Shown piece after piece: positions 1 through 19,646 of a stretch of DNA of 32,000 nt. Under the pieces are notes generated by a model, which ran no database searches, was not told the DNA's origin, and worked only from the letters and a program-made list of their open reading frames with translations. Numbering within the stretch: position 1 is the first letter of the stretch; the number at the start of each line of letters is the position of its first letter. The stretch is from Candidatus Helarchaeota ASGARD archaeon Hel_GB_B (GTDB lineage: Archaea; Asgardarchaeota; Lokiarchaeia; Helarchaeales; HEL-GB-B): positions 3,494-35,493 of the forward strand of contig SUPR01000032.1 of the NCBI GenBank assembly GCA_005191425.1, in the 5' to 3' direction. The translations under genes and the position numbers were made by a program.

Positions 1-1
1 G

Positions 2-1171
2 AATTACAAAAGGTATCATTGTCAATAGAAAAATACTATTTAGTAAAAAACTCCAACCTAATCCAATAAATACTAGAATATATGCTGTAAAAAAAGACCC
101 AACAGTTGTTCCCACTGCATAACTAAAACTTCTGAACCCAGCCCCAGTCCCTCTTATATCTGTAGGAAAAGATTCAATAGCAATCATTCTTGATATTACA
201 AATAGCCCCCAAAATGATATGCTGACCAAAAAACCGCCTATAAAACTAGCGATGAAATTCCCTAAAATAATCATAATAAGTCCTAATGGAATTATCACAC
301 TAAATATACAGATTACTGGTTTTCTACCAATATAATCCGAAAGTATCCCTGCTAAAATATAACCTATTATTGCTCCTAATACAATTGCTGTTATTATTAA
401 ATCAATTTGTGAAGTATCAAAATGCTTTTCAGCGGCTAAATATGGTTCTCCAGAAATTAAAAATACATAATTCCAACCGACAAAAAACCCTAATAGAGAA
501 ATTGTAATTGTACTTTTAATAATTTTTCTGTCAAAAATTTTTACAAATTTTTTAAGATTAAATCTAATTCCTTTTCGATCCTTTTTTTGTACCTTCATTT
601 CCCTATAAATTCTTGATTCTTTGAACATAAATGCCAAAAAAGCTATACCTATTGCAATATATGCAAACCAAGTCATTGATCTCCACCCAAAACTAGGAAT
701 TAATAATGCCCTAAATAACGGGATAGTTAGTCCACCACCTACTGACCCAAATACTAGCACAAGCGATATATATCCTGCCCGGTGCTTTTCGGAACTCTGC
801 TCAGAAAGGTAAATGACCCAAACATCACTACTAAAAAATATATATATAAAAAACAGACCAATCGTATATTGAAGTGGCGTTGTTGATAAAGAAATAAATA
901 AAGAAGACAACCCTAAACCTAGAAGGACTATAAAAATCATTATCCGTCTTCCTAGCAAATCACATAAATATTGGTTAAAAAATACAAAATATGTCCCGAT
1001 ACTGGCTATTCCTACAATGATTAGATATACACTATGCGTAATTCCAAATTCTAATTCAATAAAGGACCCATATGAGTTTGGATAATTTGTACAATAACTG
1101 TCAAAAATATCATTAAGACATAAAAAAATCAATAGCAACGGAAAATAGTATTTTCTATCCTCTTTTAACAT
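2..1171 (-). CDS. MFS transporter, 3' end truncated by window edge (missed by the ORF track)
   Basis: Translated by hand from ATG at 1171 (MLKEDRKYYFPLLLIFLCL...), open to the window start. It has MFS motif A twice (CDLLGRR, SDIIGRKP), the late-loop motif ESFPTDIRGTGAG and many hydrophobic segments. Confidence 0.9.
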   Translation of the reverse strand, partial: MLKEDRKYYFPLLLIFLCLNDIFDSYCTNYPNSYGSFIELEFGITHSVYLIIVGIASIGTYFVFFNQYLCDLLGRRIMIFIVLLGLGLSSLFISLSTTPLQYTIGLFFIYIFFSSDVWVIYLSEQSSEKHRAGYISLVLVFGSVGGGLTIPLFRALLIPSFGWRSMTWFAYIAIGIAFLAFMFKESRIYREMKVQKKDRKGIRFNLKKFVKIFDRKIIKSTITISLLGFFVGWNYVFLISGEPYLAAEKHFDTSQIDLIITAIVLGAIIGYILAGILSDYIGRKPVICIFSVIIPLGLIMIILGNFIASFIGGFLVSISFWGLFVISRMIAIESFPTDIRGTGAGFRSFSYAVGTTVGSFFTAYILVFIGLGWSFLLNSIFLLTMIPFVI

Positions 1172-15041: not shown

Positions 15042-15857
15042 TTATATAAAATTTTTTAATGATAGCTTATTTTTTATGAACCTAATTAAAATATCTTTGG
15101 ACACTATTCCCAATAATCTTTCAGATTTATCAGTGATGACTAAGATTCTTGTCCCTTTATTAAGCATTTGATCGGCAGCTTCACCAATAGAAGTATCTTT
15201 AGCGATAAAAAATGGTGCTTTACAATATTTTTCAATAATAATCTGTCTTAATCGTTCCTCTTGGTGAACTCCTGGCACTTTTTCACGAAAATCCGAAAAT
15301 GCTCTTGCTAAAACTCCTTCAGTAGCAACTCCCTTAACCGAACTTCTACTACCAACGAGAACATAGCAGACATCTTTTTCAAAAAGAATTCTACGTGCAT
15401 GTATTAACCTGCTATCTTCTGAAATAATTATGGGATTTTTCTCCATAATTTTATCAACAGTAATCGTCTTAATTCTTTGGCAGACTTTTAACATTTCATT
15501 TTGAGAAACAAAACCTACTAATTTGTCATCAACGATTGGGATTCCTGTATACCCCTTGTCATACATAATTTCCGCAACTTTATATACCGAATCATCGGGT
15601 TTAGCGACAACTGGGTCATAGACCATTATATTTGAAATTCTTATTGAACTTGTTTTTAATTTACCAGACTTGATAGACCCCAATCTGTCTAGCAAATCCC
15701 TCTCAGTAATTATACCCTTAAGTTCTTTTTTATTATCTATACACAATAAAATTGATGTTTTATTTTTATCCATTAAGCTCAAGGCATCAATTACTAACCT
15801 ATCCTTATCAATTGAAAATTTTTTAAAATTAATATTCATAATTTCTTCTATATTCAT
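15042..15857 (-). CDS. CBS-domain protein (two CBS pairs)
   Basis: Repeated CBS signatures (GIITERDLL, IMVYDPVVA.PDD, IPIVDDKLVGFVS, LLGIVSKDIL). Confidence 0.88.
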   Translation of the reverse strand: MNIEEIMNINFKKFSIDKDRLVIDALSLMDKNKTSILLCIDNKKELKGIITERDLLDRLGSIKSGKLKTSSIRISNIMVYDPVVAKPDDSVYKVAEIMYDKGYTGIPIVDDKLVGFVSQNEMLKVCQRIKTITVDKIMEKNPIIISEDSRLIHARRILFEKDVCYVLVGSRSSVKGVATEGVLARAFSDFREKVPGVHQEERLRQIIIEKYCKAPFFIAKDTSIGEAADQMLNKGTRILVITDKSERLLGIVSKDILIRFIKNKLSLKNFI

Positions 15858-15902
15858 AAAAATTCATTCCTTTCATAATTTAAATTTTAAAATTAGATTT
15901 AT

Positions 15903-16469
15903 TTAAAGGCAATCATCACATACAAATAGTCCATCTTCTGATTGCTTTAAATCATCACTCCATGCTCCACAAATTTGGCAATATCCAGTATAATTATCTA
16001 CTTGATGTTCGATACTCTCTTCTACAATCTCCATCTGTTGTTTAAGAACTTCTATATAATCTGGAGAATGTTTTAAGACATCGGTCGATGAAATAATTCC
16101 ATATAACTTGTTTTCATACATTACAATTAATCGTTTTACATTATTATTCACCATTTTTCTCATAGCTTCAATTAAATTGTTTTCTCCATCAATAGTAATT
16201 AATGGTTGGGACATTATTTCAGAACATTTTATTGAGCTCGCTTTTTTATTAAATTGTACAACTTTTCGGATTATATCGTCATTAGTAATTATTCCTATAG
16301 GTAAATTCTCTTTATTTACTACTAAGACTGCTCCTATCTTATATTTACTCATTATATTTGCAGCACTTTGAATAGTTTCATTGTATCTAACTGATTTAAT
16401 GTCTTTAGAGCATATATCTTTAACTTGCAAATCTTCTATTTTATTTATATTCATTTCAACATTCTCCAT
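15903..16469 (-). CDS. CBS-pair protein with C-terminal Zn ribbon
   Basis: CBS motifs (PIGIITNDDII, IMSQPLITI, YGIISSTDVL) and terminal CQIC...CDDC. This is a common archaeal architecture. Confidence 0.88.
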   Translation of the reverse strand: MENVEMNINKIEDLQVKDICSKDIKSVRYNETIQSAANIMSKYKIGAVLVVNKENLPIGIITNDDIIRKVVQFNKKASSIKCSEIMSQPLITIDGENNLIEAMRKMVNNNVKRLIVMYENKLYGIISSTDVLKHSPDYIEVLKQQMEIVEESIEHQVDNYTGYCQICGAWSDDLKQSEDGLFVCDDCL

Positions 16470-16628: not shown

Positions 16629-17486
16629 TTATTTTTGTTCGAAGCTATCAAAACCACCAAACCCACCACCCATTCCACCGAACTTAATACCTAATACTTT
16701 TTGGACAATAAAGCTAAAACCAAAACTACTCGTTAAATAAAATCCAAAAAAGTACAACGCAAATCCTCTGGGTGAAACTGGGATTCCTTGAATAAACATA
16801 CCTACAATAGGGGCTTCCCACACATTAAAAGGAAAGAATCCTACTAATACCCCTGAAAAAAACCAATTAAGTATGAAAAACATAACCATAAAAGGGACCA
16901 TTGTAATTAATGTTGGTTTAAGGCGTTGCCACATCATTTTTCTTTGTATTTTTTCTATGTATTTTTGTTTTCTCTTAACCTTAATCATCAATTTTCTATT
17001 TTTTGTTTCTTTTGCCTCTTTTTCCATTTTTTTATGTTTGTCAATTTCCTTTTGATATCTTTTTAATCGGGGGATGTCCATCATAATTCTGGCAAGTCCA
17101 CTAGTACCAAAAACAATTCCAAAAGATAATAATAATATACACAAAGTATTAATAGGATTCACATTATATTCAATCCAAATTTCTGGCCATAATAACCAAT
17201 GTAAAAGGGTATATGTAATTGTCCATAGTGATACCCATCCTAATACATAAGTCCCTAGTCCTTCCATGAAGACTTTTCCTTTACTCCCTAATTTTTCGTC
17301 TAACTTGAATATGTAAACCATTATTGCCCAATCAACAACTACCATCAACCAGCCAAACCCAACTCCCCATAACTGGGCATTTGGCAGACCATATAAAGCG
17401 TCTAATATTGTAAGAATATGACATACTAAAACTGTCCTAACTGCAAGGAGAAATTTTGTATAATATACTTTATCTTTAATTTCCAT
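16629..17486 (-). CDS. DUF106 (EMC3/TMCO1/Get1-type Oxa1-superfamily) membrane protein with an N-terminal EMC6/RAB5IF(OPTI)-like 3-TM domain
   Basis: C-terminal two thirds: TM, basic coiled coil (LKRYQKEIDKHKK...IQRKMM), KPTLITMVPF, conserved PF, FYLTSS...QKVLG. The N-terminal ~97 aa end in EGLGTYVLGWVSLWTITYTLLH, resembling the EMC6/RAB5IF C-terminus as I recall it. Confidence 0.8.
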   Translation of the reverse strand: MEIKDKVYYTKFLLAVRTVLVCHILTILDALYGLPNAQLWGVGFGWLMVVVDWAIMVYIFKLDEKLGSKGKVFMEGLGTYVLGWVSLWTITYTLLHWLLWPEIWIEYNVNPINTLCILLLSFGIVFGTSGLARIMMDIPRLKRYQKEIDKHKKMEKEAKETKNRKLMIKVKRKQKYIEKIQRKMMWQRLKPTLITMVPFMVMFFILNWFFSGVLVGFFPFNVWEAPIVGMFIQGIPVSPRGFALYFFGFYLTSSFGFSFIVQKVLGIKFGGMGGGFGGFDSFEQK

Positions 17487-17597
17487 TTAACGATTCTTCC
17501 TAAATTATTATAAAAGCAATCATAAAATATATCTTTAAAATTTTAGTAAGTATAATTTATTAAAAGTTTTGATACTAAAATTAAACGATTAAATTCT

Positions 17598-19646
17598 TTG
17601 GATGGTATCTTTTTGAAGGAAACTATTTCATCTTTTGATCTTGCAGCTATTATATCTGAAATTCAAGAAGAATGTATTGGCGCTATCATTAATAATGTAT
17701 ATCAAATAGATAATATATTTATTCTTAAACTAAAAACAAGGTCAAGGACCATAAATCTATTAATTGAGCCTGCTAAACGAATACACACGACTGAATATCA
17801 ACGAATTAAACCAAAATTTCCACCAAAATTTTGTATGACTTTAAGAAAATATTTGCGTAGAAAAGTGATTATTAAATTTAAACAATATAAATTTGATAGA
17901 GTCTTGATAATTGAAGTTGCAAGAAGACATAAAAACCATGAAACAAGGGAAATTGAATATTCTGAAAAAAATTTTCTAATATGTGAATTCTTTAATAGGG
18001 GTATGTTATTTTTATTAAATGAAATGGAAAATGTAATAATTGCAAATAAATATACTGTATTAAAAGACCGCCGAATAATTCCTAATCGTAAATTTGAATT
18101 TGCTCCCGTTCGAGGTTTAAATCTTTATGAATTTAAATATGAAGAGTTGCTGGAATTAAGCAATAAATCAAACAAATCTGTCGTAAATTTTCTAGCATCT
18201 GAGGTTGGTATTGGAGGGAAATATGCTACAGAATGTTGTCTAAGGCTGGATATAAATAAGAAGGAAACGATAAATAAGTTAGATAGCCAAAAAATTAAAG
18301 AAATATATTTATTATTAAAAAGCTTTATTGATAAAATAGTTAATAATAAAATTAATCCTAGAATTATTTATGAAAATAACTCTGCAATTGGTTTTGAACC
18401 ATTTGAATTAATGGTAGATAAACAATTCAAAGCCAAAATTAAAGATAATTATAACTCTTTATTAGATGATTTTTTCAGTAAAAACGAACACCTTGAAACG
18501 GTCGAAACTGAAATTGATAAAACCAGTTCTAAAATATCTAAACAAGAAAAAATTATTCAGTTTCAAAAAGAAACAATAAAGAAACTCGAAAAAAAAGTGA
18601 TAGATTATAAGGAATTTGGAGACCTAACATATCAATATCTGAATGTGATCCAAGATGTCCTCAATTCTTTTAAGGCTGCTCGAGATAAGGGTTATTCTTG
18701 GTCTGAAATTAAGGAACAAATTAAAAATGCAAAAAAACAAAAAAATTTTCCTTTAATAAATTATATTGCAGATATTAAACCATCAGAAAGTATAGTTGTA
18801 TTTAAATTCGGAGAAAAATTAATACCTATAAATTTTAGAGAGACTCCTCAAAAAAATGCTAATGAATTTTATACTACTTCAAAAAAGTCCCAAAAAAAAA
18901 TCGAAGGTGCTAAAAAAGCACTTGAATTATCTCTCAAAAATTTAGAAAAATCTAAAATAGAAAAAGAAGTTGTATCAACTTCCTTTAAACAAATAATTAA
19001 AAAACGAAAATTAAAATGGTATGAAAAATATCATTGGTTTAACTCGAGTGATAATTTTTTAGTAATTGGTGGTCGCGACTTAAAAACTAATGAAATTTTG
19101 TTTAGAAAATATCTGGATAAAGACGATTTATTTTTACATGCTGATATAAGAGGCTCACCAGCTGTAATAATAAAAAATAAAAGGGGTAAAATCCCTGAAA
19201 ATACAATTATTGAAGCTGCTCAATTTACTGTTATCTATTCAAGTGCATGGAAATCAAAATATATGAGTGCTGATGCTTATTGGGTAAATAAAAATCAAGT
19301 AAGTCAAGCTCCCCCTACTGGTCAATATTTACCAAAAGGGTCTTTTATGATCCGGGGTAAAAAAAATTACATTAAAAATTTATCTTTAAAATTAGCAATT
19401 GGGCTACTAGAAGAAAACTCAGAATTTATTCCAATCGCAGGTCCAATTAATGCGGTCAAAAAACAAACTACTATATATCTAAAAATTAAACCTGGTAATA
19501 AAAAAAGGTCTGAAATAGCCAAAGAAATTAAAAAATTTTTTATAGAAAATGTTAAAGATGCGATAAAAAAAGATAAAATTAGGCAAATTTCATTGGACGA
19601 AATTATCCGAATTTTACCTGGAGAAGCCGAAATAATCGGACAATAA
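17598..19646 (+). CDS. rqcH: ribosome quality-control factor Rqc2/RqcH/NEMF (NFACT family)
   Basis: TTG start. SSFDL..IISE, F.M.LRKYL, QYKFDR, long coiled coil, then NFACT-R (WYEKYHWF.SSD.FLVIGGRD..NE, HADI.GSP, QV...PPTGQYLPKGSFMIRGKKNY). Confidence 0.93.
   Translation: MDGIFLKETISSFDLAAIISEIQEECIGAIINNVYQIDNIFILKLKTRSRTINLLIEPAKRIHTTEYQRIKPKFPPKFCMTLRKYLRRKVIIKFKQYKFDRVLIIEVARRHKNHETREIEYSEKNFLICEFFNRGMLFLLNEMENVIIANKYTVLKDRRIIPNRKFEFAPVRGLNLYEFKYEELLELSNKSNKSVVNFLASEVGIGGKYATECCLRLDINKKETINKLDSQKIKEIYLLLKSFIDKIVNNKINPRIIYENNSAIGFEPFELMVDKQFKAKIKDNYNSLLDDFFSKNEHLETVETEIDKTSSKISKQEKIIQFQKETIKKLEKKVIDYKEFGDLTYQYLNVIQDVLNSFKAARDKGYSWSEIKEQIKNAKKQKNFPLINYIADIKPSESIVVFKFGEKLIPINFRETPQKNANEFYTTSKKSQKKIEGAKKALELSLKNLEKSKIEKEVVSTSFKQIIKKRKLKWYEKYHWFNSSDNFLVIGGRDLKTNEILFRKYLDKDDLFLHADIRGSPAVIIKNKRGKIPENTIIEAAQFTVIYSSAWKSKYMSADAYWVNKNQVSQAPPTGQYLPKGSFMIRGKKNYIKNLSLKLAIGLLEENSEFIPIAGPINAVKKQTTIYLKIKPGNKKRSEIAKEIKKFFIENVKDAIKKDKIRQISLDEIIRILPGEAEIIGQ

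Follow-up and report, generated by a model that had tools for sequence, protein, structure and literature searches.

The stretch analysed here (the window) is 32,000 nucleotides of contig SUPR01000032.1 from the Asgard archaeon Candidatus Helarchaeota Hel_GB_B, a 3.54-Mb metagenome-assembled genome (MAG) of 182 contigs whose completeness is rated at 93.7%. On its minus strand, in a region of ~28% G+C, positions 16629-17486 hold an open reading frame (ORF) of 285 codons with an ATG start and no internal stop or frameshift. The encoded protein joins two modules in one chain: an N-terminal domain of three transmembrane (TM) helices related to EMC6 and OPTI, and a C-terminal DUF106, or archaeal YidC, domain. 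Public records for the fused proteins carry only the label DUF106/EMC3-TMCO1, so the EMC6-like half has been overlooked. The gene is organized as follows (aa, amino acids; pLDDT, predicted local distance difference test):

16629..17486, minus strand: whole fused gene (P0001), 285 aa plus stop; a single ORF with full-length homologs
17190..17486, minus strand: EMC6/OPTI-like 3-TM domain, aa 1-99, from profile-profile comparison and fold
17391-17453, minus strand: EMC6-like TM helix 1, about aa 12-32
17310-17375, minus strand: EMC6-like TM helix 2, about aa 38-59
Between TM2 and TM3 of the EMC6-like domain: K-rich cytosolic loop, aa 60-76
17190-17258, minus strand: EMC6-like TM helix 3, about aa 77-99
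17154..17189, minus strand: junction or linker, aa 100-111 (WPEIWIEYNVNP), 12 residues without K or R, predicted outside the cell
16683..17153, minus strand: archaeal YidC / DUF106 (EMC3_TMCO1) domain, aa 112-268, from Pfam PF01956 and the model
17082-17153, minus strand: DUF106 TM1, aa 112-135
16902-17081, minus strand: basic cytosolic coiled coil, aa 136-195
16860-16901, minus strand: DUF106 TM2, about aa 196-209
16752-16859, minus strand: outer loop with short strands, aa 210-245
16695-16751, minus strand: DUF106 TM3, aa 246-264
16632..16694, minus strand: Gly-rich cytosolic C-terminal tail, aa 265-285, with model pLDDT <50 at aa 272-285

The fused frame is a conserved gene

The fusion is a genuine conserved gene and not a misassembly. 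Its homologs form 18 protein clusters (at 90% identity) of 264-318 aa, with at least 85% query coverage and 43-98% identity, and these derive from NCBI, JGI, ENA and Logan assemblies on contigs of up to 141 kb. Close homologs carry the names Helarchaeota or Promethearchaeota in their sources. Past the fused clusters, scores fall steeply, and the next matches are stand-alone YidC proteins with ~58% query coverage. Identity across the fused set is comparable in the two domains, at 44-84% in the N-domain and 46-80% in the C-domain.

The original prediction, made from the letters of the window, had pointed to ~17160-17200 as the interval where a stop or a misassembly might be found. Neither is present: a Logan contig of 2605 nt from a different hydrothermal-vent run (X2) spans 16979-17700 and bridges the junction, with substitutions only inside the ORF and a single 1-nt gap at intergenic position 17591.

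The C-terminal half is an archaeal YidC

PF01956 (EMC3_TMCO1, formerly DUF106) scores 77.4 bits on aa 111-268, with a cut-off of 27.1, and the match takes in profile positions 14-168 of 169. This places the C-terminal half in the family and agrees with the expectation of a DUF106 part beginning near aa 110. Helices at 111-135, at 138-161 plus 164-209, and at 246-264 of the predicted structure (see below) provide three TM helices, with the basic coiled coil between TM1 and TM2, in a TMCO1/EMC3-like fold. The conserved residues of YidC are retained: in an alignment of 33 sequences that includes stand-alone Asgard YidC (A6), K190, P191, F203 and Y250 are invariant, and D137, R188, P198, P219 and G234 are kept at positions each at least 90% conserved. 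The C-terminal half is thus DUF106 / archaeal YidC.

The C-terminal tail is seen in fused proteins of one type (family f1); those of a second type (family f29) have no tail and end in LRFEQ. In a metagenomic fused homolog of 336 aa (P0018), the cytosolic coiled coil contains an acidic-rich insertion of ~50 residues.

The N-terminal half is a divergent EMC6/OPTI homolog

The original prediction had described ~97 aa with three hydrophobic segments in frame ahead of DUF106; these are recovered as model helices 3-32, 37-59 and 77-99. Every string it quoted from the protein occurs in the translation, and the human OPTI and EMC6 sequences it gave are accurate. In HMMER alignments, OPTI (7tut_9) contains DVIYWFRQIIAV and the IDEEEYGG...FYTAI segment, and EMC6 chains end ...YVLFWTFLYGMVH.

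The relationship was traced with two profiles, one built from eleven fused N-domains (A2) and one from 22 unfused proteins only (A4). A2 was scanned against 151 Asgard genomes; 59 besides the present one contain small stand-alone ORFs that it matches end to end at E values down to 1e-13, with lengths of 92-162 aa in nearly all cases. Among 1.84 billion representative proteins it finds 19 that are stand-alone and only three that are fused. The stand-alone Asgard proteins connect to the named families: 6 of 10 tested lie above the cut-off of PF07019 (EMC6) and 1 above that of EMC6_arch; A4-type proteins score 25-31 bits on PF07019; and PF07019 matches 12 of the 21 members of a further alignment (A3) at E <= 0.01.

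Compared by hhalign, A2 and A4 agree across aa 1-98 with a probability of 99.5% (E 5.2e-23), and their motifs correspond at both ends. A4, which is independent of the fused sequences, recovers the fused ORF from the genome (E 1.2e-18). Within the PDB, it matches OPTI (7tut_9, E 3.9e-10), human EMC6 (8eoi_F, 4.1e-5; 6ww7_F, 5.5e-5) and yeast EMC6 (0.013). Homology to members of the EMC6 family is therefore detected at the level of profiles. The domain also has the form of an EMC6 protein: ~100 aa, three TM helices, a cytosolic N-terminus and an outside C-terminus in the predicted topology, and the EMC6 fold. Residues 1-98/99 are a divergent EMC6/OPTI-family homolog that lies below the Pfam threshold and is recognized through the intermediate profile and the fold. 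The homology proposed for the N-terminal ~100 aa is upheld on this profile-profile and structural evidence and not by a direct Pfam match.

A second small membrane gene occurs elsewhere in this genome, on contig C141 (L002:1483-1844). It has an EMC6-like start, D-E-x-[LI]-Y-W-x-K, and a G-T-Q...helix end. It is broken there into ORFs of 46 aa and 77 aa in different frames and is intact, at 98 aa, in G151 (L044:1489-1782). As a candidate second EMC6-like gene it shows only weak similarity to EMC6: PF07019 gives 17.3 bits and A4 an E value of 0.28, and the intact relative reaches 60% by hhalign over two helices. Distant paralogy, decay of a former copy and chance resemblance would each account for it.

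Linker, topology and predicted structure

The junction is conserved in sequence: W100 is invariant and the LWP motif is kept in 14 of 14 fused sequences. In a combined alignment, the linker aligns with the short N-terminal segment of stand-alone YidC, which ends in a proline motif before TM1. Basic residues (K+R) number 3 in the N-terminus, 0 in the TM1-2 loop, 4 in the TM2-3 loop, 0 in the linker, 22 in the coiled coil, 1 in the TM5-6 loop and 2 in the C-terminal tail. This distribution fits a topology of N-in, six TM helices and C-in, with the linker outside. Domain order and orientation agree with those first proposed: the partner N-in/C-out, followed by an N-out DUF106 unit.

A first AlphaFold run on 13 sequences gave a pLDDT of 64 and a poor C-terminal third. 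The final alignment has 63 rows, in which stand-alone EMC6-like and YidC rows were added, each against its own half; the resulting AF2 model has a pLDDT of 91.1 and a predicted template-modelling score (pTM) of 0.84. When the halves are predicted as separate chains, the complex score is 0.01 and both chains are poorly folded, an outcome that speaks neither for nor against their pairing.

The model resembles known insertases, as had been anticipated. By Foldseek, the only match at E <= 0.001 is TMCO1 (7tut_8, E 5.7e-4, TM 0.71); OPTI of the same entry follows with a probability of 0.82. The model was also compared by VIA-align with 48,161 PDB representatives, and Foldseek's own matches were re-aligned in the same way. 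Four chains among the representatives reach Z >= 8, one of them an unrelated helical protein, APH-1 (8oqz_C, Z 8.4, aa 1-84), and four among the re-aligned matches do so. The highest score belongs to 8cr1_C, an engineered human Get2ΔN-Get1 fusion (PMC10646013), at Z 10.8 with 232 residues over 7..264, spanning both domains, and a root-mean-square deviation (rmsd) of 10.3 Å. TMCO1 follows at Z 10.6 (7tut_8, rmsd 3.4 Å, 164 residues, range 105..278) and Z 8.3 (6w6l_6). Human EMC6 (6ww7_F) is matched at Z 8.2, rmsd 2.4 Å, over 86 of 99 residues (range 1..98) with 20% identity. A second EMC6 chain (7ado_F) and yeast EMC3 (6wb9_3) score Z 7.6 and 7.5, respectively.

Distribution in Asgard archaea

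The order Helarchaeales comprises seven species genomes, and a survey for the fusion, as the original prediction had suggested, finds it in 5 of the 7, in two families only (two genomes of f1, three of f29), as open frames of 285-311 aa. All five give a single PF01956 match, and none gives an EMC6-like match outside the fused frame. In the two genomes of the sister family (f30), the EMC6-like gene and YidC are separate and lie on different contigs. DUF106 occurs in 146 of 151 Asgard genomes, many with two copies, in frames almost all of 165-260 aa; within this set, a DUF106 frame that also bears an EMC6-like match is found only in the present genome. The EMC6-like gene and yidC are far apart wherever contigs permit the check, at ~490 kb in the single-contig genome G001. 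The expectation that other archaea encode the halves separately is thus supported for the other Asgard genomes sampled.

Beyond these genomes, three clusters are fused in an exhaustive search of 1.84 billion representative proteins. The two with a length of 285 aa represent the f1 and f29 types; the remaining one, at 336 aa, falls with the f29 type in each of the trees described below. A search of 5.8 billion proteins for independent fusions gave only ones named Helarchaeota or Promethearchaeota, distant lineages not having been searched systematically. Bacterial-type YidC (PF02096) was not found in this genome at its 93.7% completeness; the GET1 model matched no control genome, making that search uninformative. 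On these sequence searches, the fusion appears to be the sole such insertase of the genome.

Copy number and architecture vary elsewhere. Many Lokiarchaeia and f8 genomes have two DUF106 paralogs, and fused-type Helarchaeales have one; the A2 scan gave no second EMC6-like match in genomes with two DUF106 copies. In family f15, a frame of G015 (L058:1477-2922) places DUF106/YidC behind a signal-anchor-like helix and a soluble domain of ~290 aa, which recalls the large domain that YidC of Gram-negative bacteria has in the periplasm. Similar frames of 485-495 aa occur in G036 and G054, and no EMC6-like gene was found by the A2 profile in the four genomes of the family. AlphaFold DB entry A0A7C4J9R9, a 281-aa 'DUF106 domain-containing protein', can be aligned with the model over residues 14-265, but with only 15% identity and an rmsd of 21 Å; this is a possible case of a YidC from another lineage that gained an N-terminal extension or fusion independently.

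Origin of the fusion

Maximum-likelihood trees were computed for each half, with 14 fused sequences. In both, a supported branch separates the 14 from the other sequences (96/88 in the N-domain tree, 98/95 in the C-domain tree), and the 14 divide into the same two fused subclades. The fused sequences group with the stand-alone genes of f30 type at 100/99 in the N-domain tree and 82/82 in the C-domain tree. Each tree can be reconciled with a single fusion whose partners were inherited vertically.

Gene order identifies the recipient locus. The fused gene is divergent from an NFACT gene:

17487..17597, no strand assigned: intergenic region of 111 bp, common with the divergent NFACT gene (Pfam NFACT domains)
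17598-19646, plus strand: NFACT gene (Pfam), head-to-head with the fused gene

The fused gene has this head-to-head neighbour in both f1 and f29, the stand-alone EMC6-like gene has it in f30, and NFACT stands head-to-head with a stand-alone EMC6-like gene at 19 of 19 other Asgard loci. Since the NFACT neighbour is common to fused and stand-alone EMC6-like genes, the EMC6 locus was the recipient and yidC the appended part; the fused gene occupies the ancestral EMC6 locus. The yidC coding region would have been attached on the 3' side of the EMC6-like gene in an ancestor shared by families f1 and f29, probably in a single event, and loss of the stand-alone yidC copy would have followed. As judged from trees and distribution, the fusion is a late, derived, lineage-specific event within one Asgard order.

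The divergent EMC6-like/NFACT pair is itself conserved, and no mention of it was found in the literature searched. The gap between the genes is ~20-130 bp (loci L007-L031), and the pair is present in 7 of 7 Helarchaeales genomes. It joins an insertase subunit to a ribosome-rescue factor, NFACT being of the Rqc2/NEMF type that acts in ribosome quality control.

The stand-alone YidC of f30 (L033:1345-2052 and L038:1360-2106; P0015 and P0016) has an extra N-terminal TM helix within a total of 236-249 aa. That this helix is a relic of EMC6 TM3, left by an ancestral fusion and later fission, was considered and rejected: hhalign gives 0.6% against A4 and 0.2% against A2. The 97% obtained against alignment A1 is circular, as A1 includes those sequences.

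Genes on the other side

Immediately downstream, two CBS-domain genes follow on the strand of the fused gene (window positions 15042-16469, minus). The nearer encodes 188 aa with a CxxC...CxxC zinc-ribbon-like tail, and its position adjoining the fused gene is kept only inside the same genus.

Discussion

Taken in aggregate, the sequence, synteny and model data indicate that the gene very probably encodes a natural single-chain archaeal YidC/EMC6-like insertase, composed of an EMC6-type module, a 12-residue linker and a DUF106 module. In the proposed mechanism, the EMC6/OPTI-type 3-TM module (aa 1-99, N in, C out) would lead through the extracellular linker of 12 residues into the DUF106 module. 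Homology and the confidence of the model would place the EMC6-like helices on the outer face of YidC TM3 (helix H5), packed in the manner of EMC6 on EMC3 and of OPTI on TMCO1. YidC's three helices would then form a hydrophilic groove that faces the cytosol and the lipid, and this groove would bring the TM helices and short extracellular segments of client proteins into the membrane. Ribosomes or nascent chains may dock on the basic coiled coil, and fusion would fix the 1:1 ratio and the co-assembly of both parts. It is also fairly likely that the protein serves as the only Oxa1-superfamily insertase of its hosts: a self-contained six-TM machine equivalent to the EMC3-EMC6 or TMCO1-OPTI core.

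Several observations weigh against this reading. On the N-terminal half, PF07019 scores only 13.8 bits (E 0.25) against a cut-off of 23.3; this sub-threshold match keeps register, with aa 39-92 on model positions 25-81, and the closest stand-alone relatives (f30) likewise fall below the cut-off at 13.7-15.2 bits. A Pfam scan of aa 1-100 returns nothing relevant, the best match being Caveolin (E 0.06), and PF19094 (EMC6_arch) matches neither the fused protein nor anything else in the genome. Profile A2 itself finds no EMC6/OPTI chain in the PDB, where its best match is synaptogyrin (E 0.15). With the domain below the Pfam cut-off and its own profile without a PDB match to EMC6 or OPTI, the homology rests on the intermediate profile. 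The family hit that the original prediction had expected for aa 1-100 accordingly failed as a direct PF07019 match but held through A4 and hhalign. The whole-chain match to 8cr1_C has an rmsd of 10.3 Å. For helical bundles, a similar arrangement is enough to give Z near 10, and the Z of about 7 reached by ABC-transporter membrane domains reflects a generic six-helix resemblance. The Helarchaeales genomes are MAGs of 82-94% completeness, in which 'only copy' means that none other was found. Finally, there is no published biochemistry or activity of YidC in archaeal cells (PMC8675477).

Some of these observations would also suit a different origin of the N-terminal 3-TM block, as an unrelated lineage-specific extension that is EMC6-like by composition only, analogous to the extra helices of bacterial YidC. 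The lack of a significant direct match to either Pfam EMC6 family and the synaptogyrin match would be expected in that case. This is very improbable, as the hhalign agreement extends across the whole domain with motifs matching at both ends, an independent unfused profile recovers the fused ORF, and human EMC6 superposes closely at 20% identity. Moreover, the gene occupies the position of a stand-alone EMC6-like gene beside NFACT, and no other EMC6-like gene was found in fused-type genomes. The chance is smaller still that the single frame is an artefact, with two neighbouring genes run together through an error of sequencing or assembly or within a chimeric contig. The genome is indeed a MAG in 182 contigs, and low-depth Logan unitigs from run X3 break near 17166-17180. 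Against this, the same architecture recurs in the 18 clusters from four sources and in five species-level genomes, the X2 contig bridges the junction without an indel in the ORF, the junction motif with its invariant W100 is kept, and the two genes are unlinked in unfused Asgard genomes such as G001.

If the fusion is real and homologous, its product could still differ from a single-chain general insertase. One possibility would be a precursor cut in the linker, whose mature form is the usual two-subunit complex. The linker is predicted to be exposed outside, but it is short, aromatic and conserved, with aa 101-106 modelled as helix at high confidence. No recognizable signal-peptidase-type site was noted in it, and the engineered Emc6-Emc3 and Get2-Get1 fusions work or assemble uncut; cleavage is accordingly improbable. 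It is also unlikely, if somewhat easier to envisage, that the protein has moved to another job, such as the lipid scrambling or ion leak debated for TMCO1 and other insertases, and no longer acts as a general insertase. TMCO1 is its best structural relative, and one paper proposes scrambling as a general property of insertases. Yet this is the only Oxa1-superfamily gene found in the five genomes, all family-wide conserved residues are kept, and the two domains have evolved at similar rates.

A conserved fusion that replaces both genes provides independent genomic evidence, from the closest prokaryotic relatives of eukaryotes, that the pair acts as a unit. It lends natural support to a partnership that in archaea has so far only been predicted, by AlphaFold co-folding. 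If the single-chain insertase proposed here is confirmed, it would constitute the first natural 'Rosetta-stone' evidence that archaeal YidC works obligately with an EMC6-like partner, and it would imply that the heterodimeric core of the eukaryotic endoplasmic reticulum (ER) insertases predates eukaryotes as a functional unit. It would also make a minimal Asgard insertase directly available to structural and reconstitution studies, in the form of one small gene that could be expressed for insertion assays and for solving the structure.

Comparison with known systems

The nearest known system is the archaeal pair itself. Lewis & Hegde (2021) reported one EMC6-like protein in each of nine archaeal proteomes, encoded separately from YidC, and found the Asgard protein most like eukaryotic EMC6 and even more like C20orf24/OPTI (PMC8675477). 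A 2026 preprint also lists Asgard EMC6 as stand-alone proteins (PMC13734099). The archaeal YidC (M. jannaschii MJ0480) and EMC6-like proteins (MJ0606, Lokiarch_50810) belong to the same two families as the halves described here, and the fused domains nest in Asgard sequences. AlphaFold predicts that the archaeal proteins form heterodimers through H5 of YidC (PMC8675477), a partnership that fusion makes permanent. The difference lies in the genes: the pair is separately encoded, whereas the Helarchaeales fusion is one polypeptide with no separate copies found. No report of a natural EMC6-like–YidC fusion was found in the literature searched.

Among eukaryotic systems, TMCO1-OPTI (C20orf24/RAB5IF) of the GEL complex in the multipass translocon provides the best solved-structure match for each half (PDB 7TUT, chains 8 and 9), and OPTI is the best PDB sequence match of the unfused archaeal profile. 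TMCO1-OPTI differs in consisting of two chains, in the ER, within a ribosome-bound multi-factor translocon. Its identity to the fusion is only about 20%, and similarity to TMCO1 does not show orthology to TMCO1 over EMC3 or GET1. The fold of both halves also matches EMC3-EMC6 within EMC (the ER membrane protein complex), which has the same topology of an N-in/C-out partner and an N-out insertase. However, EMC is built of 8-10 subunits and has sizeable portions in the lumen and the cytosol, none of which occur in the fused protein.

Bacterial YidC and mitochondrial Oxa1 (PF02096), which belong to the same superfamily, are single-chain insertases whose H5 face is covered by the molecule itself. 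The additional helices in them are unrelated to EMC6 and make up a hairpin inserted between core helices (PMC8675477); the resemblance is convergent and not an evolutionary link. The original prediction had proposed that the fusion links the two-subunit eukaryotic cores to single-chain YidC. This part of it is rejected because the fusion, with domains nested in the order's own stand-alone genes, is late within one order and all other sampled Asgard genomes are unfused. Being late and local, the fusion has no bearing on the origin of bacterial YidC or the timing of eukaryogenesis.

The closest parallels in architecture were made in the laboratory. Güngör et al. engineered an Emc6-Emc3 fusion (mito-EMC) with the same domain order, which complements yeast Δoxa1 (PMC8887752). 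The Get2ΔN-Get1 fusion of 8CR1 (PMC10646013) likewise places the partner N-terminally, and this single-chain insertase is the top whole-chain structural match of the Helarchaeales protein. The engineered fusions contain artificial linkers and added targeting or ribosome-binding parts; the Helarchaeales fusion is natural and has a conserved linker of 12 residues. In these archaea, nature appears to have arrived at the design that was built by hand in Emc6-Emc3 and Get2-Get1.

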